This document shows, piece after piece, positions 42,662 through 63,750 of a DNA stretch of 64,000 nucleotides. The DNA comes from an uncultured Eubacteriales bacterium. Lineage in GTDB: Bacteria > Bacillota > Clostridia > Peptostreptococcales > Anaerovoracaceae. How positions within the stretch are numbered: the first letter of the stretch is position 1; the number at the start of each line of letters is the position of its first letter. Where the stretch lies: assembly GCA_902775345.1 (NCBI GenBank), contig CACYLW010000006.1, positions 39,613 through 103,612 of the forward strand, in the 5' to 3' direction. The notes beneath the pieces are model-generated. The model did not search any database. It was given only the letters and a program-made list of their open reading frames with translations, and was not told the DNA's origin. A program made the translations under genes and the position numbers.

Positions 42662-43663
42662 TTATCCAAAGTTTGGTTCCTCATGAGTCACAGCTTCAAT
42701 TATTTCACTTTCTGTAAATTCACTCCAGTCTGTGTAGCATAATTTGAACTCTCTATCAAAATAGTCTATTTCCATTTTATAAAGATCAATGTTCTTCTCC
42801 TTAGCTATTTTTGCTAATTCCAAGGCGGTTTGAAGTTCTACCCTCACTCCAAGAAATATTGCATCTGGTTTAAAGGTGAAAAAAGTTGTGTCTGTATTGT
42901 CACATACAATTCTCCACTCCTTTTCGTAATCCCATACCTTGCTCTTTTGTAAAACAGTCAACAATGGGAATGGATACTGCTTGTCATCTACCCCATTATT
43001 CATATCAAGATATAAAGCTCGTGTAATTGCCATTACACTTGCGTTATATCTTGAATCCTTATATATCACTGGAAATAATGGCTTACCTGGTCTCCTGCAT
43101 ATGCATCTTTTACACTCGTCGCAATCATTGCATTCAGGAATATCTATTATCTCAGTATTGTATCTTATGGCAAATCCCCTATGTTCTGATGCATAGTGTG
43201 ACCACATAAGTGGTGAGTCTATTGTTTCGCTTAAACATAGGATTTTAACTCTTTCCCTATTTTGTTGAATATAACTTAATCCAGCATTCAAAAGTTCAGT
43301 TCTTTTAAGGATGTTATTGATGTCATCATCCATTCCAGCTGGATTATTAAAAACCGGTGCATCATTAGGAAAATGAAATACATGTTGAACCATTTCATTC
43401 GGATCAACATATGCTATGCTCTCTGTAGGATCATTAAACGCAGCGGGTTTACTTAGGTAGAGTTTCTCTTCGCGCAAACTATCTATATGCATAGGCTTCG
43501 GGTCCCGAAACTTATATAGATAACTAGGCAGAGTAGCATCTAATGTGGTAATAATATCGTTCACATATTTACTAATACGTTCAGGGCTTATATTTTTCCC
43601 TTGATAATCTTCTAACTTTTTCAATAGTGAATAAAACCTATTGATTCCCTGATTTCTATTCAT
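42662..43663 (-). CDS. DUF2971 family protein
   Basis: LYKFRD...LREEKLYLSKPAAFNDPTES, LCLSETIDSPLMWSHYASEHRGFAIRY and KSKVWDYEKEWRIV are hallmark DUF2971 blocks. There is an inserted Cys cluster, CNDCDECKRCIC. Confidence 0.8.
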   Translation of the reverse strand: MNRNQGINRFYSLLKKLEDYQGKNISPERISKYVNDIITTLDATLPSYLYKFRDPKPMHIDSLREEKLYLSKPAAFNDPTESIAYVDPNEMVQHVFHFPNDAPVFNNPAGMDDDINNILKRTELLNAGLSYIQQNRERVKILCLSETIDSPLMWSHYASEHRGFAIRYNTEIIDIPECNDCDECKRCICRRPGKPLFPVIYKDSRYNASVMAITRALYLDMNNGVDDKQYPFPLLTVLQKSKVWDYEKEWRIVCDNTDTTFFTFKPDAIFLGVRVELQTALELAKIAKEKNIDLYKMEIDYFDREFKLCYTDWSEFTESEIIEAVTHEEPNFG

Positions 43664-43955: not shown

Positions 43956-44351
43956 TCATAAAAAAATGGTAAAGAAGAGATCATAGTCTTTCTTTACGTC
44001 TTTAAGGATATTGGACAGGACCTTTTCTCTGCTCATAGCATTCACAAGCTGAGTCTCCATTGACGAAAGGTCCAGACTAGATGGTATGAGGTCTACTCCT
44101 TCAGGATGATGGATAATGGTATCCCGCACCGCTGGCCTATATTCCTGTGTTGCAAGATACATCAATTTTCCCAGTGACTTCTCAAGTGTATCTCCGTTCC
44201 ACCCAAGAGATGCTGTGAGATCGCTCTGAGGGTCTGCATCCACAAGCAAAACTCTTTTTCCTTGCCTGGCTAATCCAACGCCAAGGTTCAAAGTAGTCGT
44301 TGTTTTACCCACACCGCCTTTCTGATTACATATAGCTATCGTTTTGGCCAT
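43956..44351 (-). pseudogene. Truncated parA/soj (5' half only)
   Basis: MAKTIAICNQKGGVGKTTTTLNLGVGLARQGKRVLLVDADPQ... (AGGAGG RBS). Homology stops after ...ILKDVKKDYD, before the Walker B block, and the frame ends after 7 unrelated codons. Confidence 0.8.
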
Positions 44352-44425
44352 TAATAAAAACCTCCTAGCAGCCACATATCATCACTTCCACAATCTTGTT
44401 AGGGCTCAGTTAATTCAGCCAATGG

Positions 44426-45797: not shown

Positions 45798-46640
45798 TTA
45801 TTGCCTTAACCATGTAGAAATGAGCTTTTCAGAGTCTTTCCAATAAAACTCTTCTACATATTTACCTTTGATAAACTCTATCGGTTTACCGTCCTTATCA
45901 ACAGTCATAAGCTCCGGTCCGTTTTCATCTATAAAGAACCAATGCTTTTGCTGCCCCTGCTTCTTAATTATTTCTATCGCTTCTCTGACAGCATTTGCTG
46001 CATTAATAATTTCCTTGTCAATCTGAAATCTTATTAGGGAATCCTGTATCTCTTTCAACTTTTCGAGAGACCCGCGCATGATTGGATGTAAAGAGATGAA
46101 TTGTGCCGGCTGCCTCTTGATTATTTCCTTCTTTGTATTATTGAAAGTACTATCACTTAGCAAAATATCCTTCGAACAGCCAACCTCGAACACTTTATTG
46201 TTACTTCCCCAAAAAGTGCCCTGAATAATCCCAGCGGAATGTGTAACATAATTTCGTATAATAATTGTCATCGCGTAATCATCAGAAGTATCGAAAGCAT
46301 CATGGGTCAGTTGATTAAAGAGTGTTTTGAACTCTTCTTTTCTTGGATGATTAGCAATATACTTCTTCCAGTGATCAAGGAATATTTCGAACTCCAAGAA
46401 ATATGATCTGGCTCTTCGCTCTAACGCAATCTGTCCTTGCCTTGTCGGAGTATCCGTTTCTTCTTTCAGAAACACAAAATCCTGATATGCAGATTCCACG
46501 TATAGGATCCTGTCAACATTCATTTGAAACTTCGCAAGAACCTTAACTGCTGAGTATATGCTGTCTGCATTATGTATCACCGGAGTGTAATCCGATTTCA
46601 TCGTTGGAACTATCGGTTGTTCATAGCATAATTTATACAT
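45798..46640 (-). CDS. Hypothetical protein with an Rx4H (HEPN/Abi_2-like) motif, partner of the upstream ATPase
   Basis: ATG 46640 (RBS GAAGGA) overlaps the ATPase stop by 8 nt. AMTIIIRNYVTHSAG has R135-x4-H140 (track numbering) in a predicted helical protein. Confidence 0.7.
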   Translation of the reverse strand: MYKLCYEQPIVPTMKSDYTPVIHNADSIYSAVKVLAKFQMNVDRILYVESAYQDFVFLKEETDTPTRQGQIALERRARSYFLEFEIFLDHWKKYIANHPRKEEFKTLFNQLTHDAFDTSDDYAMTIIIRNYVTHSAGIIQGTFWGSNNKVFEVGCSKDILLSDSTFNNTKKEIIKRQPAQFISLHPIMRGSLEKLKEIQDSLIRFQIDKEIINAANAVREAIEIIKKQGQQKHWFFIDENGPELMTVDKDGKPIEFIKGKYVEEFYWKDSEKLISTWLRQ

Positions 46641-47805
46641 TGAATTCCTTCTGTACAACTATCTTTGCTGCCTCCCGAAACACCTTGTTCAAATTGTAAA
46701 TAGAATCAGTATCAGGACTTGTAGAAAACACATCATTTTCCACTGCATTTTTCAATGATTGATTGTTCTTTTTCAGATAATCCGAAGCATATATGCAAGT
46801 AACCTTATTGTCGTCAATCTCATCTCTACGCAGGAAAGCAAAAGAATGAAATGGCAGGTTCATATCGAGAACATCCGTATTATGTGTAGTAAAGAACAGT
46901 TGCTGATTCCCTTCAAGGATATCTGTCATTAACGCTAGAAATGCCGTTTCTGCAACTGAATGAACATGTGAAAATTTTTCATCACAATATACAAAGTTAT
47001 TTGCTTTAAGTTTTATTGATGTAATCAAGTCTGCTATGCCTACGCCATCTGCGGTTCCGCTTGACAACTTATCCGCTTCCATAACTACACCATCTTTTAT
47101 CAAGACAGAATGATTTTTGTAGTCGATTATAAAGGTATTATCTTTTCCTTTATCTTTGATTTTCTTCACCTGCTCTATTCTAGGGTCGAGAGCTTTCAAG
47201 GTCTCTTCTAACATCGCGGCATATATATTTGGCTCAAACGGCTCAATAACCCGCTGCAGACTACTATCCACAAGCCTTAGCTCGAATTTCCATGTAATGA
47301 AAGGAACGCTTTCAAGCGCTTGAACATAGTTATCAAAGTGTTCCGAAGGTTTTTCACTTAGTCTCTTAACGCATTTTTCATAGCTGTCATTCTTTAAGAT
47401 TTTTTCTCTTTTTACATCAACGTAAATGTCTTCACTCCGGATATCTGAATAGCTCTTTTTTCTTCCCTTAAATACCGCATTTACTCTATATAAGTAATTG
47501 TCGTCAAAAGCCATATCAAGAGAAAAGCTGGCATCCTTCTGCGGATCTTCTATCAAGTCGGCAATTAGTGCATATTCTCTTTTTGCAATAAAATTGAAAG
47601 CTCCCATCAAGACCTTTCCTAATGCAGTTTTGCCTGTTGCATTAGCCCCCATTAATACAATTAACTTCTTGTATCTGAAATTAGGTCTTCCCACAAGATG
47701 TTCCTCTGCAATCGAAGAGCTAACCGGCTTTTTTGTGTAAGTGAGATGCATAGAAAAGTCATTGAACAACAGGAAATTGTCTAATTTTACATCTAATAAG
47801 ACCAT
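46633..47805 (-). CDS. ABC-type (AAA_21/OLD-class-like) ATPase
   Basis: Walker A GANATGKTALGK, signature-like KLSSGTADG, Walker B NFVYCDE and H-loop FFTTHNTDVLD. RBS AAGGAGA. Confidence 0.85.
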   Translation of the reverse strand: MVLLDVKLDNFLLFNDFSMHLTYTKKPVSSSIAEEHLVGRPNFRYKKLIVLMGANATGKTALGKVLMGAFNFIAKREYALIADLIEDPQKDASFSLDMAFDDNYLYRVNAVFKGRKKSYSDIRSEDIYVDVKREKILKNDSYEKCVKRLSEKPSEHFDNYVQALESVPFITWKFELRLVDSSLQRVIEPFEPNIYAAMLEETLKALDPRIEQVKKIKDKGKDNTFIIDYKNHSVLIKDGVVMEADKLSSGTADGVGIADLITSIKLKANNFVYCDEKFSHVHSVAETAFLALMTDILEGNQQLFFTTHNTDVLDMNLPFHSFAFLRRDEIDDNKVTCIYASDYLKKNNQSLKNAVENDVFSTSPDTDSIYNLNKVFREAAKIVVQKEFNV

Positions 47806-48357: not shown

Positions 48358-49473
48358 TTACTCCAGTTTTTGCTTTATGTGATGACATATGTGCTCAAGC
48401 TCTGGAACAAGTGTCATTTCGTTATATCCCATTTCGTTTAGTTCGCTCAGTATACGTTGCTTATTTATTATATATACCGAAGAATAGTGTAATTGCGGAT
48501 TTTCATCTATACCGAAAATAATAAAAGATCCCTTTTGTCTTAACAGTCGCTCATTATCCTTATCTTCTTCATATTCTATAAAGTATGATTTCCTTAATTT
48601 TTCAAAATCCGCATTTTTATAGACCTTCCCTGCTGCATAAGCAGCAATCTGTTCTACTTCTTTAGAGTCGCTTGTGACAGTCTCCAGATCCATAAAGCCA
48701 AATACTTCACCTATGTCGTACAGTTCTTTTTCACTTCCAAATACAATAGTGCACGCCATAAATAATGCCACATAACGATCTATAGAAACATCTAGCAATC
48801 TTGTTGGTAACCCATAATGCTGCATTATTGCTAGTATTTTATAATCTGTTTTCCCCTCAGCTTCCTTACCACAGTTTTTTATAAATTCTTTATATAAGTC
48901 TATCTCTTTGTCCTTCCATTTTCCTCTCATAACACTTGGTAGGAGTTTATAGCGGTAACAACCATGGCCCCTATAAAAACCATATTCTCCCATTAACTTG
49001 TCGAAGGACTCAACAGAATCAACAAACTTTGTTTTATTTGAATGGATTTTTAAAAAGTTTTCAATAATGCTATTGTAAAGCTTTTCAAACGGAAGCGATA
49101 TTTTGTAAAACCTTGTATCAGCCGGCTGAAAGCGGAATGTATCATATTTAGCACTGTAAGCCACTCCCATTTTGTTGCACAAAAGATCTTGTAAATAAAC
49201 TAAATCCACTTTGTAGTTTATAAACAAATCTTTTCCATCATCGCTCCGATAATACACTATATAAAAGTCTGAAACCTTGCACCAAGCAATAAAGTGGTGT
49301 TTATGTATATCAGGATTCTTCTCTCCATGTGAAGCCGATTCAAATTGCTTGAAGAGATAGTTCTGGTTAGGTGAACCGCCACAGATAATGTAAACATCTC
49401 CAAGCTGTGCACAATCTATTTTCAATAACGAGCCGTGTGCTTCTATAATTTCAGTCATTATAGCCAGTGACAT
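48358..49473 (-). CDS. FRG domain-containing protein
   Basis: FYRGHGCYRYKLLPSVMR...LAIMQHYGLPTRLLDVSIDRYVALFMAC is the FRG signature. ATG 49473 has an AAGGAGA RBS, whereas the track start at 49506 has none. Confidence 0.85.
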   Translation of the reverse strand: MSLAIMTEIIEAHGSLLKIDCAQLGDVYIICGGSPNQNYLFKQFESASHGEKNPDIHKHHFIAWCKVSDFYIVYYRSDDGKDLFINYKVDLVYLQDLLCNKMGVAYSAKYDTFRFQPADTRFYKISLPFEKLYNSIIENFLKIHSNKTKFVDSVESFDKLMGEYGFYRGHGCYRYKLLPSVMRGKWKDKEIDLYKEFIKNCGKEAEGKTDYKILAIMQHYGLPTRLLDVSIDRYVALFMACTIVFGSEKELYDIGEVFGFMDLETVTSDSKEVEQIAAYAAGKVYKNADFEKLRKSYFIEYEEDKDNERLLRQKGSFIIFGIDENPQLHYSSVYIINKQRILSELNEMGYNEMTLVPELEHICHHIKQKLE

Positions 49474-49572
49474 CTGTAATTCTCCTTGCTGTTCACTTTT
49501 CTTCATATTGAAAATACGGAATCTATATTAAAGAAACATACTCTAATGGAGACATAGAACCGTCCACTGTCT

Positions 49573-49985
49573 CCTGTACTGGCTCGTAGAAGGTGTCTGG
49601 GTGGTTCGGGTCGAAGATCTCGTTGGCCCACATCAGCGTTACGAGGTTTTCGGTCTCGCTCAGATTGATTATGTTGTGTGTATATCACGGCAGCATGTGC
49701 ACGGCCTGGATATTTGCCTCGCGCTCTGTTTCGTCGAGGCATGCACCTGTCTTGCCTGTCTCGAAGTCGATGCCCAGCTTGCGTTCCTAGATCAGCCCAT
49801 GGCCGCTTACTACGATGAAGAGCTCCCACTTGCTGTTGTGCCAGCGCTGGCCCTTCGTGATTTCAGGCTTCAAAATGTTTACGGAGAACTGGACGTAGTC
49901 TGCGGTCTTGAGCGGCTTGGTGAATGAGCTGCTTGAGATCGAAGGTATCATGAGTGTAGCCGGCTGTTCGCGAGTTCTCCTGGCG
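49573..49985 (-). pseudogene. Remnant of a CapF/WbjC-type sugar-nucleotide reductase gene (C-terminal cupin part) with in-frame stops
   Basis: The minus frame reads FSVNILKPEITKGQRWHNSKWELFIVVSGHGLI*ERKLGIDFE...NIQAVHMLP*YTHNIINLSETENLVTLMWANEIFDPNHPDTFYEPV. The final block matches the CapF cupin ...GYTHNI.N....MVT.MW.NE.FD...PDT as I recall it. The remnant is a G+C-rich island in low-G+C DNA. Confidence 0.7.
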
Positions 49986-50122: not shown

Positions 50123-51175
50123 CTACTGACATAAGTCTATACTAATGCCCAATCTGCATCCATATCGGCATAGTCTAACCATATCGCAGTCATAACACTT
50201 TATTTTTACTCTTTCTCTGAAATCTGAAAATTGTTTCCCATTCCAAACTTCCCGAATAGATTGTGCTCGCAATGATTCAACTATGCCATCATCCCAAATC
50301 CCAAAAGAGCACGGATGACAATGCATCTGGCTATCAATATACATTGAAAACGTAGCTGCTTCGCATGCATCAATAGATGCCGGATGAATTGTTTTTCCAA
50401 GCCTCAATATCGCTGGGGTAAAGCACGTGTCAAACCCAATTTTAAAGGCGTACTTCTGAGATGCCAACTCGAAAAACCGATTCAGTCTCTCATCTTTTGC
50501 AGATAGTACTTTCTCCTCAACACCCTCACCAATCGGTTTATATAAGATGAATACTACTGCATTTAAACCTTTTGGAAAGAGACCCTTTCCCAGTCTGATT
50601 ATCGCCTCATCTATAGTGTCTGATGATATCACAAAATGCACATTGGTTATGCAACCAGCTTCAAAAAGTCTTTTCACAGTTCTCAGCGTCTCATAGTTGC
50701 TTTCCTTTTCGTTAATAAGTCTCGAATACCAAGACACTGCAACAGCTCCACAGTATTCCTTTATTAAGCTTATCTCTTCATCTGTGATTTGAAAGCCACT
50801 TGTCGTTACGTTAGGAACAATATGATAATAGCGGCATATCTTCAAAATCTCTTCGAAATCAGGGTGCTTGTTTGGGTCTCCAGCACCACCAAGTGCTATT
50901 TGAAAAACTTTACCGCTAGACTGCCTTGCAATCTTTTCGAAATCTGCAAGCGCCATGTGTGGTGTATTCTGCTTGTGTCCATACTGGTAACAATCTATTC
51001 CTGCATTACTACAGTAACTGCCATTATGGCAGTGTCCCATTATACCAACATCCAATAACTCTGGAAATGATCTTCGTTCTGGATCGGCTCCTTCTATATC
51101 ACTTCTTATTAGAGTCCCATTCTCTTCATTGAACAACTCAAAAAAACCGTATTGCTCATCCTTGTAAATAATCAT
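50123..51175 (-). CDS. Radical-SAM-like enzyme with a SPASM domain and a non-canonical N-terminal Cys cluster
   Basis: IALGGAGDP (GGEP-like). SPASM motifs CEAATFSMYIDSQMHCHPC and CYDCDMVRLCRYGC (CX2CX5CX3C). The only N-terminal cluster is GHCHNGSYCSNAGIDC (CX5CX6C). ATG 51175 lies 2 nt after the upstream stop, and an alternative TTG lies at 51184. Confidence 0.8.
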   Translation of the reverse strand: MIIYKDEQYGFFELFNEENGTLIRSDIEGADPERRSFPELLDVGIMGHCHNGSYCSNAGIDCYQYGHKQNTPHMALADFEKIARQSSGKVFQIALGGAGDPNKHPDFEEILKICRYYHIVPNVTTSGFQITDEEISLIKEYCGAVAVSWYSRLINEKESNYETLRTVKRLFEAGCITNVHFVISSDTIDEAIIRLGKGLFPKGLNAVVFILYKPIGEGVEEKVLSAKDERLNRFFELASQKYAFKIGFDTCFTPAILRLGKTIHPASIDACEAATFSMYIDSQMHCHPCSFGIWDDGIVESLRAQSIREVWNGKQFSDFRERVKIKCYDCDMVRLCRYGCRLGISIDLCQ

Positions 51176-51177
51176 AA

Positions 51178-51573
51178 TTACCAAACACAGTCGCGACCAT
51201 TAATATAGAAATCTTTTTCTTCAATCTCAAAGCTGTCTGTTGTAAAAAACTGCGTCAGCGGGGCTTCATCACTGCTTGTATATCCCCAATAAGCATGTGC
51301 ATCACTCATGCTTTTGAATTTATCAGCTGCTTTAGAGCCAAAAATTTCCTTGATATTATCATAGGTCGGCGTCTCATAATCAAAATACTGCAATCCACCT
51401 TTCTCGAGTCCAAATAGAATATCTGCACAAAGATCATGTCCTTTATCTGACAACTTTCCGCCCTCAACAAAGCCTAGTTTCTCAAACAAATATTCCTCTG
51501 TGAGTTCTTCCTTGGATATTATAAGGAAATTTGTCGAAGAACTATTCGTAATAAAACCCATCCGGATCTTCAT
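51178..51573 (-). CDS. Hypothetical 131-aa protein (N-terminus MKIRMGFITNSSSTNF)
   Basis: AGGAGGA RBS 7 nt upstream of ATG 51573. It overlaps the upstream ORF by 32 nt. No family recognised. Confidence 0.65.
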   Translation of the reverse strand: MKIRMGFITNSSSTNFLIISKEELTEEYLFEKLGFVEGGKLSDKGHDLCADILFGLEKGGLQYFDYETPTYDNIKEIFGSKAADKFKSMSDAHAYWGYTSSDEAPLTQFFTTDSFEIEEKDFYINGRDCVW

Positions 51574-51961
51574 CTTCAATTCCTCCTATAGCTTCAGCAA
51601 ACAGCATCTTGAAGTCCTCATCATAATTTAGTGTTTCGACATTTCTATCTAGTGATCTTCTATCGCAATTCTTCATGGCATAGTGACCACTGGCGTAAAT
51701 CTTCGCCTTCTCTCGTTCAATGTTATAATGCTCCTCAATGAAATCTTCCAAACTATCAAATTCTTTGGAATAGAACCTTTTATACTCTTTCTTGAAATCT
51801 ACAGCCCCATCAAAATAGTAATCATACATACGAGAAATCATATCGCCAGCAAATGTCTTTTTTCTTACGCCGAGAGTTTTCATTACGATTCTTTTCCTTG
51901 GAATCTTATCGATTGGGAAGAATATAAAGCCCCGTGATTTATAGCATAATGGTTTGTACAT
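51542..51961 (-). CDS. Hypothetical 139-aa protein with an acidic C-terminal tail
   Basis: ATG 51961 lies 1 nt after the NTPase stop, with GAGGAG 8 nt upstream. It ends GGIEDEDPDGFYYE. No family recognised. Confidence 0.65.
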   Translation of the reverse strand: MYKPLCYKSRGFIFFPIDKIPRKRIVMKTLGVRKKTFAGDMISRMYDYYFDGAVDFKKEYKRFYSKEFDSLEDFIEEHYNIEREKAKIYASGHYAMKNCDRRSLDRNVETLNYDEDFKMLFAEAIGGIEDEDPDGFYYE

Positions 51962-51962
51962 A

Positions 51963-54143
51963 TCATTGCTCCTCATTGATAGTTGAAAGAATATCTTGTC
52001 GCATTTCTTCTTTTAATCTATCATGCTCAGGCAACGATTCGAAATAACATATCATCTCGGAATCCTCCTTATCCAGCCCGTCAATTTCAAACAAAAGAAT
52101 GAATAGCTCAGCAGCTTTCTGTATTTGCATTGCTCTATCGGGATAGTTTTCGCATACAGCTTTATGGTATTTGATCAGATCATAAGGCAAACGCAATGAA
52201 TCGTCATAAGTGCGTGCTATCATCTGCTTATACGCTCCGACAATAATCTTGATATCTCCAAGCCCAAACAGAATATCAAAATAAAGATTCAGGTTATTTG
52301 GCAATCCTACAACTGTTCCCTCCAATGTAGTATCAAACAACTTACCTCCGTCTTCATTTGGGCATATTCTAAGGCACTCACAAATGTAGTCTTTTTCAAA
52401 TTCTTCCAGGGGAAAGCCAGTTGCAAACAAAACCTTTAGTCCATAGTTTAAGAACTCGACTCTGTGTCTTGTACGATAGTATTGTGCTTTGTGTCCTTCT
52501 TCAATTCTATAAAAATCTAATATCTTTTTACAGTATAGCTTTCGTTCCTCTTCACTAAGAAGTGTATCCGTCTTGAAAAATACATATGCATATTGGATAA
52601 CACCCTCTTCACATGATACCTGTGCTTCACGGAGTCTCATCAAATCAGATATTATTCCGTCGCAATTAACAGAGATAGGAGTTGAGTTTCTCTTCATGAT
52701 GTAACGAGCAATGCAATAATCTCGCATCTCATCAAAGACGAAATAGACATATTCTGATTCCATGTTCGCGATGGTTCCTTTATGTGAAACCAGTTTTTTG
52801 CTCAATAGAATAGTTTCGTCAAAAGCTTTTTGCAAATCCTCATTTTGGAACTTAGATATATAGTCTATTTCCAAGTCATCAAATGACATCCTCGTCATCA
52901 TCGCATCTGCAATGGTATCAAGGACTTCTTCTATATTTGAATTCTTCGATTCTTTTACCCATTTGATATACTCAGAAAAAATCTCGTGCTTACGTATTGA
53001 GAGGATATCTTCATTACTTCCTTCATTGACCTCAAAGAAAATTCTAAGCAAAAGAAGATGCTGACAAATAACATGTGTGACAGCACTTGACATATATCCA
53101 GTATACTTGAAATGATTTCTATATCTTTTGATAATCCTTTGTACAGCTGCATTAGGATACTTACCGTCCCTCAAATCGTAAATTAAATGCTTTTGCTCTA
53201 TACTATCCGACAGATGCTTCGAAAACCTATCCTTGTAGTATTCACTTCTGCATGATGTAATAATCTTGAAACGATGGTATCTATCTTTATCATTAATGAA
53301 CGAACTGAGCTGTTCGCCAAACTTAGGATTGTCATTTTCGTTCACAGCATCAATCAAGATAAATAGGTGCTTTCCTCTCAACTTCAAAGTTGCGTTCACA
53401 AACCAGTAATATAATTCTTTATGTTTCCTCCAGATAGCAGGCGTTCTCAAACAATCAAGGATATAATCATCAATATCCTTGTCTATATCTCTTGAATTCA
53501 AAAGCAGCACAGGTTGCTTGAGTTTTTCTGTAAGCTCCGCAATACTGCATAATAGATTTGTTTTTCCGTTTCCCGCACTTCCGGTTAGTACGAGATAATT
53601 GCTATTCGCAGCTTTTACAAAATTCTGCTGTTCACTTAGTGTTTCCGTATATGGATAGTGTGATATTTCAAAAATAGGTTCTGTTTCGGTGTATTCTTCT
53701 TTGAGCTTAACGCCTCTCTTACCAAAACGCTCATGGTAGTCAAGAGCAGAATCTATAGCTTCTTCAATTTCCGTCAACTTGCTTCTTCTCTTAAGATGGA
53801 ATATTATGCCAAAGTCTGTGTTGCCTTCCTTCAAGACCTGTCCATAGTAATCTCCTAAACTCCAATTTTCAATATATTCTTTATCAAGTTTAACTACCTC
53901 CTCAAAATCAGTAATCTCACTTCTGCCAGAGACTTGCCACATTCCCGTTATTCCAGGTTTAGTTGTCATTCTGACCCTGTGATGCAACGAATACATCTCA
54001 AACTCCTGAAGTGTTGGCGGTCGCGTCCCTACTAGACTCATGTCACCTCTGGAAAGCAAGCAGGAAGATAAAAAAAGATGCAAAAAGATGCATGATGTGC
54101 CCAACTCCAGCATTTCCAACGGTTCTACAGTATCGATCTTCAC
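51963..54143 (-). CDS. NACHT-like STAND P-loop NTPase with a long helical C-terminal region; the N-terminal ~100 codons derive from a foreign sugar-transferase gene
   Basis: Walker [16 protein letters not shown], Walker B-like [13 protein letters not shown], and [12 protein letters not shown] (TSR-type motif), followed by about 430 aa of helical sequence. The true start is uncertain: in-frame Met codons occur only in the first ~70 codons, inside or upstream of the transferase-derived part, and there is a TTG near 53834. Confidence 0.8.
53850..54053 (-). pseudogene. Sugar-transferase 3' stub fused in frame to the NTPase ORF
   Basis: [67 protein letters not shown] is the C-terminal half of the Bac_transf family. 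Homology starts abruptly at GDMSLVG and ends at NWSLGD. Confidence 0.65.
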
Positions 54144-54716: not shown

Positions 54717-56429
54717 TTATTCAGTAATTTCCCCTATTACTTCCGCCGGTGCCTCCTTTTTCTGGCGCCCTCTTCTTTTTGTTGGTTCTCCTTTAGAAAG
54801 ATCATAAATAATGATTTTCTCCTTCGGATATAAAGTCCCCTTAAAGGAAATACTACCGCTACCTTCATCCACATCTGCTAACTTTCTAGCCGCTGCTAAC
54901 AATGCAGGGATTTTTACAACAATCGCATATGTCTGCTTAGACGCATCCTTGCTAAATGGGACTGCGTTTTTAGTATTCTCTTTACACGGCTCGATAGCCA
55001 CCTGTCTTGAAGGGGCGTGCACAAGCATTCGAATAAAGTTTGGAAAACCTAACTCCACTGCTGTTGCTTTATTGAATTTAAGATTAGTCGCGGTCAGCGT
55101 CATTACAGAGTCGCCTCTGCTCTCCTCTAGCTCTACTACTTCAAAACCTTCTAGAATACTTGCCATTTCTAAATCCTCCTTCTGTTCTTGGTTTTTCATA
55201 CCATTTTTCTCTTCGGAGGGATCCATAGCCATTTTACTACTTGCCGAAACCAGGCGAGTCACTGATACAGATCTCCATTCGGGTGATATCCCAACGAAGC
55301 CGCGTAGTCTTCCCTTCTGCTTTGGAATCAACCTTTGCTGGCCACGTTGTTTCCATTTTCGCCAACTCTGCTTATTCAGTAGTTCCTGTGCCTTATTCCA
55401 AAGATCTCGGCTGACTATTGCGTCATGGTGATCTGCAATGTAATACTGCTCCGCTTCTCCTTCATTGATTTTGGTCGTATGCGTCAGGTAATCGATTGTG
55501 ATAGTTTTCTGCATGAGAACATCACCACAGTATTTTTCATTTTGCAGGATGTTCTTCACTGCACTAGCTGTCCAGTCGTTACCATAGACTGTCTTCGCAC
55601 CAATGCTGTTTAATCTAGTCGCTATCAGGATTGGATGAATGCCTTGCACGAAGCTCTTATATATTGTCTTCACGACTTCCGCTTCCTGCGAGATGATAAC
55701 CATATTGCCATCCTCATCAGTGTCATATCCGAGTAAAGCACTTGTAGGGATCTTCTGAGTACCATTCTTCATGCGGTTCCGGATTGCCCAGCGAATATTG
55801 GCAGATATACTTCGGGATTCCTCCTGCGCAATGGACGCCATCAAACTCAGTACCATGTCGGTCTTCTCATCCAAAGAATATAGTCTCTCTTTTTCAAAAT
55901 AGATCTCTACAGGATTTTTAAGTGCTTTCAACTTTCTAATAGTCGTAAGACAGTCTACCGTGTTCCTTGCAAATCGGCTGATAGATTTCGTTATGATCAT
56001 ATCTATCTTACCTGCTTCACAATCCTCTATCATCCTTTGGAACTGTTCTCTGTGCTTAACTTGCGTTCCGCTAATTCCTTCATCAGCATAAATACCGGCA
56101 AGGACCCAGTTTTCATGTGCACTTATGAATTCTGTATAATGATTTACCTGCAGATCAAAGCTAGTTGCTTGTGCATCTTCATCTGTACTCACCCTACAGT
56201 AGGCTGCAACACGCTTTACTGGATCTGCTTCTCCCATCGGTGTTGTAAGCTTCGTTGCTGGAATGACCTGTACTTCAAAGTCTCGTTTCTTCGCACTTCC
56301 CTTCCTTTTTTTCTTAGGTTTCCGTACAACGACTACTGGATTCTGCGGAGTAGGTTCTTCAGCATTCAGGAGTGCTTCAAGCTCATCAATGGGATGCCCA
56401 GTTTTAGCTTGTTCGTTTTCCAATGTCAT
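54717..56429 (-). CDS. Large serine recombinase lacking a zinc ribbon, with an unrecognised ~150-aa C-terminal domain
   Basis: VAAYCRVSTDEDAQ, YADEGISGT and KSISRFARN (resolvase catalytic motifs) plus a recombinase domain (ALLGYDTDEDGNMVI...EKYCGD). There are no CxxC pairs. The C-terminus is MTLTATNLKFNKATAVELGFPNFIRMLVHAPSRQVAIEP... Confidence 0.9.
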   Translation of the reverse strand: MTLENEQAKTGHPIDELEALLNAEEPTPQNPVVVVRKPKKKRKGSAKKRDFEVQVIPATKLTTPMGEADPVKRVAAYCRVSTDEDAQATSFDLQVNHYTEFISAHENWVLAGIYADEGISGTQVKHREQFQRMIEDCEAGKIDMIITKSISRFARNTVDCLTTIRKLKALKNPVEIYFEKERLYSLDEKTDMVLSLMASIAQEESRSISANIRWAIRNRMKNGTQKIPTSALLGYDTDEDGNMVIISQEAEVVKTIYKSFVQGIHPILIATRLNSIGAKTVYGNDWTASAVKNILQNEKYCGDVLMQKTITIDYLTHTTKINEGEAEQYYIADHHDAIVSRDLWNKAQELLNKQSWRKWKQRGQQRLIPKQKGRLRGFVGISPEWRSVSVTRLVSASSKMAMDPSEEKNGMKNQEQKEDLEMASILEGFEVVELEESRGDSVMTLTATNLKFNKATAVELGFPNFIRMLVHAPSRQVAIEPCKENTKNAVPFSKDASKQTYAIVVKIPALLAAARKLADVDEGSGSISFKGTLYPKEKIIIYDLSKGEPTKRRGRQKKEAPAEVIGEITE

Positions 56430-56611: not shown

Positions 56612-56941
56612 ATGGACTCAAAAGCTTTAGGAGCGAATATTCGTAAATATAGAGTTCAAAAAGGACTAACACAGGATGAAGCCGCTGAAAAGTGTAGCCT
56701 CTCAACCAATTACTTCCGTCAGATCGAGTTTGGTAACAAAGTTCCTCGACTTGAAACCTTTTTGAGGATAGCAGAAACTCTTGAAGTTTCCACAGAATTG
56801 CTACTCTCCGGTAATGTCAGCTGGACTACGCAGATCAGAAGCAATGAATTGTATATCAAGCTTGAAGATTTAGAAGAAAGTCAGAAACGCTTTGTTTTGG
56901 AGACAGTTGATGCCCTTATCGAGGGCCTAAAAAAAATGTAG
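56612..56941 (+). CDS. XRE-family HTH transcriptional regulator
   Basis: LGANIRKYRVQKGLTQDEAAEKCSLSTNYFRQIEFGNKVPRLETFLRIAETL (HTH_3). Confidence 0.9.
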   Translation: MDSKALGANIRKYRVQKGLTQDEAAEKCSLSTNYFRQIEFGNKVPRLETFLRIAETLEVSTELLLSGNVSWTTQIRSNELYIKLEDLEESQKRFVLETVDALIEGLKKM

Positions 56942-57003: not shown

Positions 57004-58086
57004 TTATTCATAGGATTTTAATACGTATTCATCAAAGTATGGGAGAGTAAATATTAAACAACCCTCTACTTCCTTGATTATCCCTTTCTCTTTCATCTGT
57101 TTAAAACAACTCAAGTATGATATTTTATGTTCTTTACAAGATTCTTTAACTTTTTTCATTCCGCCATCTGCTGTTTTAGCAATGGTATAAAGGAATAATT
57201 TATCATTTTTTGGCAAGTTTTCCCAGACTTTATCATAGACGCACTCTTCTAGATACCCCTTGAATTTACTAAGGACTAGATTTGGATCGTCACCGTTATT
57301 CCATGTATAATGTCCAAGAACCTGAAAAGCTAAAGGATAACCCTTTGTTTCCGTTGCCATGTTCAAGGCCTTTCCATACCCAATTTGAAAAACAGTAAAA
57401 TACTGGGCAGCCATCAAATCTAAGTCTAGAGGTGCAAGATGAATTCTATAAATACGAGATAAACCGGATAATTGATTATTTTCTTGTAATCCCTGTAAGT
57501 TTTCGTACAATCCTGTCATCACTAAAAAAACAGGAAAGTTCAATCGGGCCAGTCTTTGATAGTCATAAGCAAATGATTGAATATTCTCGCTAGGGAAAAC
57601 ATCATCCAGAATAATCAGAACCTTCTTGTTTATATCTTTTAACCAACTCAGCATCTTTTCGATAATTACATTTATATCTTTAATGGGCTCTGCTCCCTCC
57701 ACTTCAAAGCCTCCTATTCCCGGCACCATCACACTTATTTTTGCTTTAGACAATTCCATTTTAATTGGTTGCTCTTCCAAAAGCCTCGATGCAAGATGCT
57801 GCTTCATATCTTCTTTTGGATTGAATTCTATAACGATCCAATCCTTTTGATTTTGAAAATGCTCAGCAATAAATGACAACGAGACTGTCTTTCCACTGCC
57901 CTGTATTCCTGTAATAAAACAGCTTTTATAAACTGGTGTTTCCGATGTAAAAACATCTATGATTTCCTGTACTGACTCTGTAGAGCCGCTTACCAGTGTT
58001 TGTGGGAATACATGCGGATCCAAAGTGAAAGGATTATTGATTATTCCTTTTGACGTAAGTGTGCCTGCAGTATTTTCAGTCGTCAT
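57004..58086 (-). CDS. AAA+ ATPase (Arch_ATPase/ORC-like) with a C-terminal winged-helix-like region
   Basis: Walker A FITGIQGSGKTVS and Walker B VLIILDDV. The C-terminus LFLYTIAKTADGG...SCFKQMKEKGIIKEV is wHTH-like. Confidence 0.85.
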   Translation of the reverse strand: MTTENTAGTLTSKGIINNPFTLDPHVFPQTLVSGSTESVQEIIDVFTSETPVYKSCFITGIQGSGKTVSLSFIAEHFQNQKDWIVIEFNPKEDMKQHLASRLLEEQPIKMELSKAKISVMVPGIGGFEVEGAEPIKDINVIIEKMLSWLKDINKKVLIILDDVFPSENIQSFAYDYQRLARLNFPVFLVMTGLYENLQGLQENNQLSGLSRIYRIHLAPLDLDLMAAQYFTVFQIGYGKALNMATETKGYPLAFQVLGHYTWNNGDDPNLVLSKFKGYLEECVYDKVWENLPKNDKLFLYTIAKTADGGMKKVKESCKEHKISYLSCFKQMKEKGIIKEVEGCLIFTLPYFDEYVLKSYE

Positions 58087-58935: not shown

Positions 58936-60528
58936 TTAACTCTTCACTACATCCTGAATGAGATCTGAGAAATCCAGGTCAACTTCTATGTGATCGCTAT
59001 CATAAACATATACCATATTGACTAAGTTCTTCATCATTTCCTCAGTGAGTTTATCTTCTGCAAGTATTGCATCCGCCATATTATACAACCCTATGATTCT
59101 GTCGCGTCTCTCTACTCCAGATACATTTTCAGCATTTAGCTTCGTAAGCTCCTCTTCTAGTTCTTTGATTTCACAAGTCTTCCGCTCTTTTCTTGCATTA
59201 AAGGAGTCCAGACTGATAAAACCTTCTGCGTATGAAATGTACAGATTTGCGATATCCTCTCGCTTAACTTCGCAGCGTCTTCGTATGTCATTTATATTTT
59301 TTGTCAGATCAGATTTTGGGTGGATACCAGTTCTTCCCTCGTTTTCATATACTGATTTGACCACCTGCATCTGTTCCTGCACTGCAGCAAGAACTGCCGC
59401 TTCAATTTTCCGTTCTAAATAATAATCTGTACAGCACTTACAAGAACTGCCTGTATTTAATGCATGTGAGCAATAGAAAAACGGTTCATTGTGAGCAGCT
59501 CTATGAGCGGCTCTATAGGCTAACGCAAGTCTGCAATTCCCGCAACGAATCTTACCCTTCAGCAGATATGTATTGGGGACTTTCACAGCGTGCTGTTTCT
59601 GATGCTGAAATATTTCCTGTGCTTTATAGAACGTCTCCTTGCTGACAATAGCATTATGGGCATCTTCAGTAATAATCAACTCGCTGGGTAACGCTTTTCT
59701 CACAGATCTTGATCCAGGTCTAACTAAAATCCTTCGATTATGAACAAATGCCCCAGTATACTCATACCTCTGCAGCACATCACGTATTTTAGTAGTTGTC
59801 CATAAAACCTCACTTTCGACTGTTTTGATAGGACCCGGAGATCTGCCATTCATCAGTCTGTATTTAGCAGGAGTGGGGATTCCTTGCATGTTCAGCTGAT
59901 TCACGATTGCTTTTGTATTACATCCACTGGCTGCCATTTCAAATATCCATTTTACGATTTTGGCTGCTTCTGGATCCACTGCCCATGTCCCGCGTGCATT
60001 TACATCTTTGACAAAGCCATACGGTGGATTCCCACATGTCGTCTTTCCTTGCTTCCACTTCGACATCATTGAAGATTTCACCTTCTTGGAAAGATCTCGG
60101 CTGTACATAGTGTTCACCAGATTGCTAACTGTCATATCCAGCCCAAGAGTCTTTCCCACATAGTTTTTACTGTCATAGTTGGAGTTGACCGCAATTAAGC
60201 GCACTCCGAGTATAGGAAAAATCTGGTCGATGTAATCTCCGACTATAATGTAGTCGCGCCCCAATCTGGACAGATCTTTCACTAAAATTGTATGAAAACG
60301 TTTCTTTTTCGCATCTTCTATCATTCGTATAAAGGCAGGCCTATCAAACTTTGTCCCGGAGTATCCATCATCGATATACTCGATGACATCTCCGTTCAGT
60401 TCCTCATGCTGTTTAATGTAGCTTTCGAGTAAGTTCCTCTGGTTCTCGATGCTGTTACTCTCATCTTTCCCATCTCTTCCTAGGTCTCCGTCAGCTATTG
60501 AAAGTCTGAGATAAAAAGCTATCTTCAT
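58936..60528 (-). CDS. Large serine recombinase (canonical)
   Basis: AFYLRLSIADGD, DDGYSGTKFDRPAF, VKDLSRLGRDY, a recombinase domain, zinc ribbon CGNC...CSHALNTGSSCKCC, and a coiled-coil tail. Confidence 0.9.
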   Translation of the reverse strand: MKIAFYLRLSIADGDLGRDGKDESNSIENQRNLLESYIKQHEELNGDVIEYIDDGYSGTKFDRPAFIRMIEDAKKKRFHTILVKDLSRLGRDYIIVGDYIDQIFPILGVRLIAVNSNYDSKNYVGKTLGLDMTVSNLVNTMYSRDLSKKVKSSMMSKWKQGKTTCGNPPYGFVKDVNARGTWAVDPEAAKIVKWIFEMAASGCNTKAIVNQLNMQGIPTPAKYRLMNGRSPGPIKTVESEVLWTTTKIRDVLQRYEYTGAFVHNRRILVRPGSRSVRKALPSELIITEDAHNAIVSKETFYKAQEIFQHQKQHAVKVPNTYLLKGKIRCGNCRLALAYRAAHRAAHNEPFFYCSHALNTGSSCKCCTDYYLERKIEAAVLAAVQEQMQVVKSVYENEGRTGIHPKSDLTKNINDIRRRCEVKREDIANLYISYAEGFISLDSFNARKERKTCEIKELEEELTKLNAENVSGVERRDRIIGLYNMADAILAEDKLTEEMMKNLVNMVYVYDSDHIEVDLDFSDLIQDVVKS

Positions 60529-62273
60529 GATTGCATCTCTCCTCTCAAAAGTTCCACAGTATCACAGACAACATCTGCGAAGCTAAATCTTATTTCAACA
60601 TCACCGGCAGCTGTTACAGTAATGCGCTCTACAGTGTTTTTTACAAGAGCCTCATCGAATTCATATCCGTAGCATATACCCTCAAATTTCTTATTAACAT
60701 CTGAAAACTTATCCAGCAGACGCAACTGTTTGCTGTAATCCTTTTTGAGATCAACATATTCCTGTTCCAAATTCTCCTTTTTCTTTAGTAGATTCTCACG
60801 AACATTATCATATTCTCTCTCAGTAATTACACCATCTGCCAGATCTTCATAAGATTTCATAATCGTGTTTCCTATATCTGCAAGTTTGCCTTCTATCGAG
60901 TTCATTTTTTTCAACGATGATAGTATCGGATCCTTCCCGCCATTTTCCTTCTTAAGTTTTTCAAGTACATTTGCCATATCTGACATGGTACGAATCTGAA
61001 AGTTTAGCTGATCCATCACTATCATCTTGAGCAAATTCGTACTAATACGGTGTCCTCCGCATTTTGCTTCACCTGCAAGTGGCGGACAGCTATAGAACTC
61101 CACACGACCCAGGCCGTTTTTTCTTGACCGCAACCCCTTTCTAATTTCTTCCTCTGTGGCTCGGGAATAATCATTACGGTAGAGAATATAATTCATCCGG
61201 CGGCCACATTCCGCACAGTATACAAGACCAGTCATCTGATCCCGAAAATTCTCCCTCGCTTTGACGTTATAACTCTTACTTCTGGCACTATAACAGTTCT
61301 CTTGTTTTGTGATATCCAAGATTTCTTGATAATCTCCCCTGGATACCAATGGTTCATGTGTGTCTTTATATACCGTCCACTCTTCCTGTTCAGTCTTCCT
61401 GACTGGCTCTGCTTTATATAGACACTGTCTAAGCCGCCCCATACAAACATCACCAACATAACTTGGATTGTACAAAATTGTTCTGACTGTTGAATAAGTC
61501 CATTTCTTGTTAAGTGATGGCTTCCCATTCTTCAGATTTCGATAATCGGAAGGTGTAGGAACTCCCATCTGATTCATTCTATTAGCTATTTCGTCAATCT
61601 TTATGCCTATACGCATCCATTGAAAAATCGCTCTCACATACTGAGCTGCTACAGGATCCACTATGTATTTCGACTTATCCTCTGAAAAATCATATCCGAA
61701 CGGTGCCCGTCCGTTTGGAACAACATCGCTTCTCATACGTCTTGCTTCAGCAGCAATAGTCATTTTTCTTGACTGATCTTTTGAATACATGGAGTTCACA
61801 ATATTCTTGATGGGAACCGATATTTTATCCTGATCATCTTTGCGGAAGCTGTCATAATTGTCATTTACAGATATGAATCTGACATTGAGCCTTGGAAGCA
61901 CTGTATCCAGCAGGAATCCGGCTTCTAGATAATCTCTACCGAATCGAGACAGATCCTTTACAACAATGCACCTGATTTTTCCAATCTGAATATCCTCCAT
62001 TAGGCTCTGGAAAGCTGGTCTTTCAAAGTTGGTTCCTGTAAATCCGTTGTCTGCGTAGCTTCCTGCCAGTTCCAGTTCCGGATGTTCATTGATGAAGCTG
62101 TAGAGTATAGCCATCTGATTTCGCAATGATTCATCTGTTTCATTACCGCCGTTCTCTATCGAAAGCCTTCCGTATGCAGCTGTAGGCATGAGTTCGATAA
62201 CGTCTTTCAAAGGTGTTATCAGAGGCTCTGAAGGCTGCGACAGGTTTACTGTTTTTCTACTTTTCCTTGCCAT
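60525..62273 (-). CDS. Large serine recombinase (canonical)
   Basis: AAYGRLSIENGG, ADNGFTGTNFERPAF, VKDLSRFGRDY and zinc ribbon YCAECGRRM...YSCPP...KCGGH. 4-nt overlap (ATGA) with the downstream recombinase gene. The start may be an internal Met. Confidence 0.9.
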   Translation of the reverse strand: MARKSRKTVNLSQPSEPLITPLKDVIELMPTAAYGRLSIENGGNETDESLRNQMAILYSFINEHPELELAGSYADNGFTGTNFERPAFQSLMEDIQIGKIRCIVVKDLSRFGRDYLEAGFLLDTVLPRLNVRFISVNDNYDSFRKDDQDKISVPIKNIVNSMYSKDQSRKMTIAAEARRMRSDVVPNGRAPFGYDFSEDKSKYIVDPVAAQYVRAIFQWMRIGIKIDEIANRMNQMGVPTPSDYRNLKNGKPSLNKKWTYSTVRTILYNPSYVGDVCMGRLRQCLYKAEPVRKTEQEEWTVYKDTHEPLVSRGDYQEILDITKQENCYSARSKSYNVKARENFRDQMTGLVYCAECGRRMNYILYRNDYSRATEEEIRKGLRSRKNGLGRVEFYSCPPLAGEAKCGGHRISTNLLKMIVMDQLNFQIRTMSDMANVLEKLKKENGGKDPILSSLKKMNSIEGKLADIGNTIMKSYEDLADGVITEREYDNVRENLLKKKENLEQEYVDLKKDYSKQLRLLDKFSDVNKKFEGICYGYEFDEALVKNTVERITVTAAGDVEIRFSFADVVCDTVELLRGEMQS

Positions 62274-63750
62274 CCCTCATCCCCTCCTCAAGCCATTCTT
62301 CAGGAAGCATTTGCTTCCAGGCATTATTTTTCACATCGATCGTGACTTCCTTTAAGTCATGTACCCAGACCATTTCAATCCACTTCCTCAACTGCATATT
62401 CGTCAGTGTTACTGATAGGTCTATATTGCGGTATAGTTCTACCCATGGGTTTTTCAGAAATACCTTAGCTAAAATCAATAGCTCATCCTGTTTCTGACAG
62501 AACGCTTCTTCGAGCTCATCCATTTGCATATCCAGGTCATCCAAGGCAGATTCTTTAAGTTCAGGGGGAAATTCCGTTTCAATAGTCTGTCGCTTTTCAG
62601 CCAATATAGAGATTTCCTCTATAATTACAGTCATAGCATCGACCACGACCTGTCTTCTTTTATTCATCTCTTCCTCAGATTTTTCTGTCAAATACCCAGC
62701 TACCTTAATGGCAAGTGCCTTTTCCTCTTTTAGGCTCTCTATAACTGCAGATACGACATCATCATATGGAACACTATCCTCTTTTGTTTTTCTGACTCTA
62801 CAGTAGCGACGCTCACGATCAGGTCCAACTTCGTAGCATATCATTGACTTACCTGTCTCTGCAGACCTTATGATTAGGCGAAGGAGGTTTTTCTTCGGTT
62901 TATTACCTTTATGATAATTAACCCTATGCGCAATCCTTGCAGATTCAGCTTTTACAAATAGCTCTGTACTTATAATTGACGGTATATTAAATTCAACATA
63001 TTCCCCATTGATTTTTCTGCGAATGATTCCTGTATAATCTCTGCAGTTCAGGATAGCCTTTATTGTATTAATTGACCAATCTGTAGCATTTGGTTTGGCG
63101 TGTTTTATAGAGACTCTCTCTAGATGAACAGCTGGTGACTCATATCCCTTATTTTGCATGATTCCTGCAATGCTTCTCATCGTCTCTTTGCCACTAGCCA
63201 TTAATTCGAAAATCTCTATGATAATCGGAGCGACTTCTTCGTCAATGACAAGATTTCTGTGATCTTCAGAAAGCAAATACCCATACTTCTCATCATGTAC
63301 ACTGAATAAACCTTTTTCACGCAGAGAATTATGCGCTCTCCAACGTGTTGTCGTTCTGTAATAGATATTCTTATCTGTAAAATATTGCTCGATCTCTTCC
63401 CGGGTTTTATCTAGTGAGCAGAAGTCATCATCCACTACAGCAAAATTGATTCCTGCCGGGTAAAAGAGTTCTGATAATAGATGTTTTGCATTAGCTATAC
63501 TTGGCCCGAGCCTGTAATACGAATCTACTATCAACAGGTCAAACTGTCTGGCCATACCATCTTCCCGGAGGGAGACAAATGCCTTTTCTGCCTTCTTATT
63601 TACTTCACGATCTGAATATCTTTTTGATACTTTCCATTTTCTTTTTCTGGCGTATGTATCTATTCTGTCATTTTGCAAGCTGATTATATTTGTTGGAGTA
63701 TCATTTTCCGGCAAATATGATACATAGCGGGTGTAGCTGACACATCTCAT
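62257..63750 (-). CDS. Serine-recombinase paralogue with degenerate catalytic and zinc-ribbon motifs
   Basis: The recombinase domain is present (GYLLSEDHRNLVIDEEVAPIIIEIFELMASG...CRDYTG). The N-terminus reads VSYTRYVSYLP / YSDREVNKK / VDSYYRLGPS instead of Y.R.S / D.G.SG / DLSR.GRD, and there is no CxxC pair. Confidence 0.8.
   Translation of the reverse strand: MRCVSYTRYVSYLPENDTPTNIISLQNDRIDTYARKRKWKVSKRYSDREVNKKAEKAFVSLREDGMARQFDLLIVDSYYRLGPSIANAKHLLSELFYPAGINFAVVDDDFCSLDKTREEIEQYFTDKNIYYRTTTRWRAHNSLREKGLFSVHDEKYGYLLSEDHRNLVIDEEVAPIIIEIFELMASGKETMRSIAGIMQNKGYESPAVHLERVSIKHAKPNATDWSINTIKAILNCRDYTGIIRRKINGEYVEFNIPSIISTELFVKAESARIAHRVNYHKGNKPKKNLLRLIIRSAETGKSMICYEVGPDRERRYCRVRKTKEDSVPYDDVVSAVIESLKEEKALAIKVAGYLTEKSEEEMNKRRQVVVDAMTVIIEEISILAEKRQTIETEFPPELKESALDDLDMQMDELEEAFCQKQDELLILAKVFLKNPWVELYRNIDLSVTLTNMQLRKWIEMVWVHDLKEVTIDVKNNAWKQMLPEEWLEEGMRDGKEK

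Follow-up and report, generated by a model that had tools for sequence, protein, structure and literature searches.

The 64,000-nt stretch of DNA from an uncultured Eubacteriales bacterium considered here (contig CACYLW010000006.1; the whole stretch is called the window) carries on its minus strand, at positions 50123-54143, one copy of a conserved four-gene cassette. The cassette encodes a STAND NTPase (g1), two proteins of about 130 amino acids (aa) each (g2 and g3) and a radical S-adenosylmethionine (radical-SAM) enzyme with a SPASM domain (g4). With a probability of about 0.6, the cassette represents an Avs2-related, four-gene immune-type system in which a partner protein is modified by g4, and the copy in the window is a damaged one.

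The four genes occur together in many other genomes, so their arrangement in the window is not due to chance. The order g1-g2-g3-g4 was found in 24 of the 28 genome loci retrieved with g4 and in all four loci retrieved through distant relatives of g1. The 24 ordered loci belong to Lachnospiraceae, Oscillospiraceae, Erysipelotrichaceae, Christensenellaceae, Treponema, Melainabacteria and one proteobacterial bin. Relatives of g4 are numerous (2017 detectable), and the best 120 of them are full-length with 60-100% identity. A near-identical cassette, the variant P0038 of Ruminococcus sp. AM44-9AT, sits among conjugation genes (ArdC, relaxase) as cargo of an integrative and conjugative element (ICE), and the contig collection lists it in over 4000 blocks. 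P0004, the closest homologue of g4, is on a contig without g1, and searches of plasmids yielded only alpha-proteobacterial cassettes with a SMEK domain and a Vibrio Avs2 operon.

Across the family, g1 carries an exchangeable N-terminal module while g2, g3 and g4 are constant. In gut anaerobes this module is a single transmembrane (TM) helix; in other lineages its place is taken by SMEK, by a trypsin-like protease or by other domains. SMEK_N is found in g1 of P0430 (locus L041) and of an Agrobacterium plasmid (L040), Trypsin_2 is found in g1 of P0448 (L042), and the N-terminal domains of P0458 (L043) and P0464 (L044 and L045) have no family assignment. SMEK is cited as a nuclease domain of short-pAgo systems (PMC10810196). 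In all of these distant cassettes (L040-L045) g1 is followed by genes for proteins of 121-136 aa and 131-136 aa and by a radical-SAM enzyme of 343-378 aa, and pairwise BLAST shows that these are homologous to g2 (E 3e-10 to 0.04), g3 (1e-11 to 2e-18) and g4 (1e-53 to 5e-60), respectively. A constant trio combined with an NTPase whose N-terminal module is exchangeable is the architecture of defence STANDs. It had been suggested that the radical-SAM enzyme replaces a missing STAND effector in trans, but the intact members of the family that bear an effector still keep the same trio. The trio remains constant while the effector is swapped, and it can therefore be argued that the trio forms a core functional module.

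In the window, four open reading frames (ORFs) on the minus strand were identified at 50123-54143 by ORF listing and direct reading, and the tight packing reported in the preliminary description was reproduced exactly. The TGA of g1 (51965-51963) is separated by a 1-nt spacer from the ATG of g2 (51961), g2 (stop ending at 51542) overlaps g3 (ATG at 51573) by 32 nt, and the stop of g3 (ending at 51178) lies 2 nt from the ATG of g4 (51175). The low G+C content noted before is also real, since G+C is 0.38 in the cassette, compared to 0.51 over the initial 42 kb of the window.

The g1 protein carries the STAND/NACHT-like set of motifs, consisting of a Walker A motif GxxxxGK[ST] (53550-53582), a Walker B-like motif hhhhD (53337-53366) and, downstream, a TSR/sensor-type motif that reads TSCR (53235-53264). 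These motifs were located by direct reading and are followed by a helical C-terminal region of about 430 aa. The NTPase core matches Avs2 models (PADLOC, 1.9e-22, about 160 residues of the 1504-position model; NCBIfam NF041813, 1.2e-16, residues 160-312 only). The Pfam matches of g1 to NACHT, NPHP3_N, nSTAND3 and NLRC4_HD are all under the gathering scores, and intact g1 had no match in the PDB in sequence or profile searches.

The ORF that was initially described as g1 (51963-54143, 726 aa with a GTG start) is not one gene but a chimera of two unrelated homology blocks with a mapped breakpoint. Residues 32-96 of the ORF match Bac_transf (Pfam PF02397, 6.6e-17, model positions 99-163 of 179), and the same block matches TIGR03025 of NCBIfam (3.1e-23, model positions 357-424 of 445). 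This 195-bp relic (53856-54050, minus strand), fused in frame to g1, corresponds to the C-terminal catalytic part of polyprenyl-phosphate sugar transferases, and no homology was found between it and the DNA of intact g1. The remainder of the ORF (51963-53852) is a 5'-truncated g1. Its closest intact relative is the 747-aa g1 of locus L049, with which it shares 73% identity in a gapless BLASTP alignment covering L049 residues 114-747. Homology to the L049 gene begins at about 53852 at the DNA level, and the conserved residues begin at about residue 98 of the window ORF, which corresponds to about residue 119-121 of L049. An exhaustive HMMER search likewise paired residue 1 of the STAND part with residues ~100-135 of the family representatives. 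A rearrangement in the window deleted about 120 codons from the start of g1 and fused the remainder in frame to the sugar-transferase fragment.

The part that was lost is conserved elsewhere. Intact g1 homologues are 720-850 aa long, and at their start a hydrophobic helix precedes a conserved GKYIPGxFVELNxxKExLRYF module. An N-terminal TM segment is predicted in 52 of the 54 full-length representatives, and the juxtamembrane module is kept in essentially all g1 relatives. The window g1 is missing about 120 N-terminal codons that encode both the TM helix and the GKYIPGxFVELN juxtamembrane module. The absence of an N-terminal effector fused to the NTPase, as first noted, is true of the window copy but is an artefact of deletion: the protein looks effector-less because its front end was deleted, while intact homologues carry an effector (TM helix, SMEK_N or Trypsin_2). 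Having lost the effector and the adjoining module, the window cassette is most likely inactive or only partly functional.

The junction itself (53831-53856, minus strand) contains an AGGAGA Shine-Dalgarno sequence followed 5 nt later by an out-of-frame ATG (53845). This ATG opens a mini-ORF of four codons whose TGA (53833-53831) overlaps an in-frame TTG of g1 (53834-53832), an overlap that could permit re-initiation and hence translation of the truncated STAND protein. In the metagenome contig L002 (4775-7234), g1 of an ICE-borne cassette is split into ORFs of 553 aa and 264 aa. Unless this is an assembly error, L002 is a second, independently decayed copy.

The alternative that the truncated copy still works deserves consideration. 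A soluble, effector-less g1, produced either as the fusion to the relic or by re-initiation at the TTG at 53834, would act together with g2-g4, and g4 or its product would serve as the effector in trans, which is the model of the preliminary description. The 726-codon frame of g1 is open, the 634 residues aligned to L049 show no frameshift, the identical truncated allele was found in several independent assemblies, g2-g4 are intact and translationally coupled, and the junction provides a strong ribosome-binding site with a mini-ORF that overlaps an in-frame start. This alternative is nevertheless unlikely. The missing juxtamembrane module is present in essentially all relatives, every other family member keeps an N-terminal module, and in KpAvs2 of Klebsiella pneumoniae the region between the effector and the NTPase is where the accessory protein Avap2 docks. 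A scan for promoters and terminators was uninformative in the AT-rich DNA, and the existence of another decayed copy with a split g1 (L002) also argues against a working truncated form.

The enzyme encoded by g4 (350 aa; 50123-51175, minus strand) was assigned by Pfam matches to Radical_SAM (PF04055, 2.9e-6, 28.0 bits, just below the cut-off of 29.5) and SPASM (PF13186, 1.4e-5, 25.7 bits compared to a cut-off of 21.5) and by profile matches to PDB entries. The only cysteines in its N-terminal part are C49, C55 and C62 (350-aa numbering; C52, C58 and C65 in the preliminary description), which form a CX5CX6C loop (50990-51031). There is no CX3CX2C motif anywhere in the protein, a GGAGDP motif is present (50873-50890), and the SPASM cysteines are arranged as CX17C, CX2CX5CX3C and a final C (50309-50365 and 50156-50197, plus C251 and C349), so that the set is complete. 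The g4 motifs listed in the preliminary description are all present. Among the 120 best homologues, C49, C55, C62 and GGAGDP are invariant, and each of the SPASM positions C251, C271, C286/C289, C327, C330, C336, C340 and C349 is at least 94% conserved. The proposal of a radical-SAM/SPASM partner with a non-canonical cluster motif is supported, and this partner is conserved.

The cluster loop varies within the family. It is CX5CX6C or CX7CX6C in the gut clade and CxCX3CX3C in one Bacteroidales member, and the canonical CX3CX2C (CDKGCVFCY and similar) is found in g4 of the five proteobacterial-type, non-TM cassettes that were checked (L040-L044). The three N-terminal cysteines of g4 align with the canonical motif and are therefore orthologues of the canonical ligands at the same site, with expanded spacers. 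The nearest solved relatives of g4 are SuiB (profile E 1.5e-8, residues 72-345) and, for the SPASM domain, anSME. Its best neighbours in NCBIfam are maturases of peptides and cofactors, namely a W-cofactor maturase (1.1e-11) and MftC (7.2e-8), all of which score far below their cut-offs. These relationships suggest that g4 uses Fe-S radical chemistry on a peptide or protein rather than on a nucleotide. A full-length homologue of g4 (about 29% identity, phrog_7293) is also present in T4-like phages of Klebsiella, Enterobacter and Cronobacter (173 phage records) and has a CX7CX2C loop. In the example of Enterobacter phage phi5 (L039, 4899-6050), no g2- or g3-like genes were found beside it.

The two small proteins had been taken for orphans, but they have 75 (g2) and 305 (g3) homologue clusters. 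Both were absent from Pfam, NCBIfam, PHROGs and PADLOC as families, g3 had no match in the PDB in sequence and profile searches, and Foldseek searches with AlphaFold2 models of g3 (PDB, BFVD) and g2 (PDB) returned nothing under E 0.1. Alignments show that both are conserved along their entire length, and the models have a predicted local distance difference test score (pLDDT) of 85 for g2 and 81 for g3, with values below 50 for residues 1-11 of g3 and for the C-terminal tail of g2. The conserved core of g2 (139 aa, of unknown fold; 51542-51961, minus strand) includes RxYDYYF and EY..YY..EF.S, while its tail, GG-x-EDED-x-DG-x-YYE, is restricted to the closest clade. The g3 protein (131 aa; 51178-51573, minus strand) begins with an invariant motif, MKIRxGFITNSSSTNF (51526-51558), for which the consensus across cassettes is MKI[RK]x[GD][FY][VI][TS]NSSS[TS]xF. 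Almost all of the cassettes examined, in a range that extends from Firmicutes to Proteobacteria, share this motif, and g3 of L043 carries a close variant, MKLRAGFVTNSSTTSY.

Some g4-like genes that are not linked to a STAND gene adjoin genes for proteins with an N-terminal xVTNSSSxSF motif like that of g3 (L033, L034 and L035). In Hungatella, a 262-aa NSSS protein is encoded directly downstream of the g4-like enzyme (L033, 6962-8826), and in L034 (6917-8824) a single fused ORF spans both proteins, perhaps through an error of assembly. L035 (7001-8056 and 11134-13029) is a phage-like Bacteroidales region with a GIY-YIG gene and three NSSS paralogues. Searches of phages with an NSSS-motif protein (tblastn) gave no match. 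The g4-like enzyme and the NSSS protein may represent an older two-part module. Because NSSS proteins adjoin g4-like enzymes even without a STAND gene, g3 is the leading candidate for a partner or substrate of g4. The g2 protein is a poorer candidate for a substrate because its acidic/YYE tail is confined to the closest clade.

The preliminary description also entertained the logic of ribosomally synthesized and post-translationally modified peptides (RiPPs). According to this explanation, the action of g4 on g2 or g3 would yield a secreted or diffusible product, for example a bacteriocin, a signal or a redox cofactor, and the STAND protein would be a regulator or an immunity factor rather than an antiviral sensor. 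The families nearest to g4 are indeed peptide and cofactor maturases (MftC, W-cofactor maturase, SuiB and PqqE), g2 of the closest clade ends in the GG-x-EDED-x-DG-x-YYE tail with its final residues predicted to be disordered, and radical-SAM/SPASM peptide systems linked to STAND proteins were predicted by Kaur et al. (2020, PMC7159879). However, neither a protease nor an exporter nor an immunity gene is conserved in the cassette, the conservation of g2 and g3 extends over their full length, their folds are predicted with confidence, and most g2 clades lack the acidic/YYE tail. Swapping of nuclease, protease and TM domains at the N-terminus of g1 is a hallmark of defence STANDs, and the cassette is located in defence islands. 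A RiPP-like or protein-derived cofactor pathway is thus distinctly improbable.

A viperin-like chemistry, in which g4 would turn a nucleotide or small metabolite into an antiviral or signal molecule with g2 and g3 as adaptors, is very improbable, since the weak pVip matches (PADLOC E 0.003 over 90 residues; NF038283 E 0.087, 12 bits compared to a cut-off of 180) and a conceivable role of the T4-like phage homologues in nucleotide or DNA metabolism are set against a complete SPASM domain and two auxiliary clusters (an arrangement usual for enzymes that act on peptides or proteins), nearest solved relatives that modify peptides and proteins, and the analogous Avap1, for which neither viperin-type nucleotides nor a predicted NTP pocket were found (PMC11564622).

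The preliminary description knew of no described system with this gene composition, which overlooks the KpAvs2 operon of K. pneumoniae. Bechon et al. (2024, PMC11564622) described this operon as consisting of an Mrr-STAND Avs2, the radical-SAM protein Avap1 and the DUF6375 protein Avap2. Avap2 binds KpAvs2 between the effector and the NTPase and is required for defence, and Avap1 is needed against some phages, including T2; no viperin-type nucleotides were detected for Avap1 and no NTP pocket was predicted (PMC11564622). The comparison was made through a Vibrio plasmid example of the KpAvs2-type operon (L046), which was recovered because tblastn ties g1 to its Avs2-like gene, and that gene adjoins a radical-SAM gene and a DUF6375 gene. 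Like the cassette, the operon couples an Avs2-type STAND NTPase to a radical-SAM partner and to a small protein (about 130 aa), and both are located in defence islands. They differ in that the KpAvs2 operon has three genes rather than four and the STAND gene is last (in the Vibrio example) rather than first. The Vibrio Avs2-like protein is about 1360 aa long, in contrast to about 750 aa for g1 with its TM, SMEK or trypsin N-terminus, and the published KpAvs2 has an Mrr nuclease. The Vibrio Avap1-like enzyme has a canonical CX3CX2C and no SPASM domain, and only its radical-SAM core aligns with g4.

The identity of g2 or g3 with DUF6375 (Avap2) was ruled out by hhalign against the Vibrio DUF6375 protein, with probabilities of 0.2% for alignment A1 and 0.1% for alignment A2 (g2). 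PF19902 was not found in g2 or g3 of five divergent cassettes at E<=10 or E<=0.1, while the Vibrio protein matches it at 9.6e-45. Alignment A3 (g4) matches the Vibrio Avap1-like enzyme with an hhalign probability of 87% (E 4e-6) over the radical-SAM core only, the BLASTP identity is 23%, and a plasmid search with g4 at E<=1e-8 recovered MftC-type enzymes but not the Avap1-like protein. Support for Avap1 as an orthologue of g4 stops at the level of the superfamily. On these comparisons, the cassette and KpAvs2-Avap1-Avap2 are analogous rather than orthologous and do not belong to the same operon family.

Other systems share parts of the architecture. Single-gene Avs and bNACHT STANDs (Gao et al.; Kibby et al.; PMC13581612) follow the same tripartite plan, in which a P-loop NTPase stands between an N-terminal effector that varies and a helical C-terminal region, but in the cassette the STAND gene is obligatorily linked to a trio that encodes two novel small proteins and a radical-SAM/SPASM enzyme. 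This trio is not mentioned in the Avs/bNACHT literature that was compared, including the Avs-family surveys of 2026. An MBL-fold (metallo-beta-lactamase; Lactamase_B) gene lies directly upstream of g1 in L042 (1395-2588), L044 (5006-6004) and L045 (800-1798); the adjacent g1 has the trypsin-like N-terminal domain in L042 and the unassigned one in L044 and L045. These cassettes recall the Avs2-trypsin-MBL system (bioRxiv 10.64898/2026.08.25.746987), with the radical-SAM trio as an extra. Like g4, SuiB, anSME, MftC and PqqE combine a radical-SAM core (a partial TIM barrel) that bears a GGE-like motif with a complete SPASM domain of 7-8 cysteines. The g4 enzyme differs from these SPASM maturases in scoring far under their family cut-offs, in the gut-clade loop (CX5CX6C or CX7CX6C rather than CX3CX2C), in having no evident RiPP recognition element (RRE) domain or short precursor peptide and in having a STAND NTPase as its genomic partner. 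The combination that marks a RiPP cluster, a short leader/core precursor with a protease, an exporter or an RRE, is absent from the cassette. The FxSxx-COOH/VMAP-associated systems predicted by Kaur et al. (2020, PMC7159879) are also predicted conflict systems, in which a STAND ATPase is paired with a SPASM radical-SAM enzyme whose substrate is a small protein encoded alongside. The cassette lacks their zincin peptidase, vWA-MoxR module and FxSxx C-terminus, and the taxa and architecture are different.

By analogy with Avs and bNACHT proteins, g1 would sense a phage-derived cue through its helical C-terminal region, oligomerize through the NTPase and then fire its N-terminal module. In the gut clade the outcome would be membrane damage and abortive infection, while a nuclease or protease effector would be fired in cassettes with other N-terminal modules. 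The g4 enzyme would modify a protein, most likely g3 at its N-terminal NSSS motif, which is predicted to be flexible, with g2 or g1 as alternatives, and g2 and g3 would be obligate accessory subunits comparable to Avap2 for KpAvs2. The more specific proposal that g4, with its CX5-7CX6C loop, modifies a small partner (likeliest the NSSS motif of g3) as a licensing or signalling step of an NLR-like sensor with a swappable effector is tentative, with odds below even.

The Avs2-model matches and the defence genes nearby support the earlier classification of the locus as a conflict-type STAND operon. Several points weigh against an Avs2-related immune system with a g4-modified partner and a damaged window copy. 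The match of g1 to NF041813 scores 59.9 bits compared to the Avs2 equivalog cut-off of 1000, only the NTPase core aligns, and the C-terminal region of g1 is much shorter than the Avs2 sensor; a full-length Avs2 match that includes the long terminase-sensing C-terminal domain was not obtained with g1. Apart from the marginal pVip hit, g2, g3 and g4 match no PADLOC model. The unusual X6 spacer before the third cysteine of g4 could impair SAM binding. The putative defence role is argued from homology of the NTPase core and from genomic context, and the choice of g3 as the substrate is drawn from three observations (motif invariance, low pLDDT and co-occurrence). Finally, the truncated g1 may retain residual function, as its 726-codon frame is open in several assemblies.

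The cassette lies amid conflict-type genes and gene debris, as the preliminary description recognized. The defence island of the window includes PDC-S31/DUF2971 (42662-43663, 1.5e-40), an AbiLi-like ATPase (46633-47805, 5e-26) with an overlapping 286-aa partner (45798-46658) and PDC-S15/FRG (48358-49506, 7.6e-39). A second STAND-like protein (ATPase_2, 57004-58086) is encoded next to a helix-turn-helix gene (56612-56941). There are four large serine recombinase genes (54717-56429, 58936-60528, 60525-62273 and 62257-63750), three of them in tandem. A ParA/AAA_31-like ORF of 139 aa (43956-44375, minus strand) aligns to no more than positions 2-120 of a 177-position model and is probably another gene fragment. 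The G+C content falls from 0.51 in the first 42 kb to 0.39 between 42 and 64 kb, and this low-G+C part of the window looks like an integrated mobile element.

Debris of polysaccharide genes brackets the cassette. The Bac_transf relic lies upstream, and a pseudogene of a Polysacc_synt_C (cupin) domain with two in-frame stops in its translation (49526-49951, minus strand; Pfam PF14667, 5.4e-28) forms the downstream edge. The intact L049 cassette is located within a polysaccharide locus, between AbiTii (1.3e-43) and DRT3 (Drt3a 1.5e-43; Drt3b 5.5e-127). These two observations suggest that capsule and exopolysaccharide loci are sites where this defence islet resides, and that the window copy was transplanted from such a site along with pieces of the neighbouring genes.

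STAND and NLR-like sensors are central to innate immunity in both bacteria and eukaryotes. KpAvs2 is one published case of a STAND protein that needs a radical-SAM protein; the cassette family is much larger and taxonomically broad, and it is abundant on ICEs of the gut microbiome. It offers a natural series of cluster-loop variants (CX3CX2C, CX7CX2C, CX5CX6C and CX7CX6C), and the proteobacterial cassettes with the canonical radical-SAM motif should be tractable in Escherichia coli. The window copy also provides a lesson for annotation, since truncation and fusion to gene debris can make a STAND protein look effector-less. If the proposed role of g4 is true, protein radical chemistry would be an undescribed layer of STAND/NLR immunity, and what Avap1 does for KpAvs2 would be explained as well.

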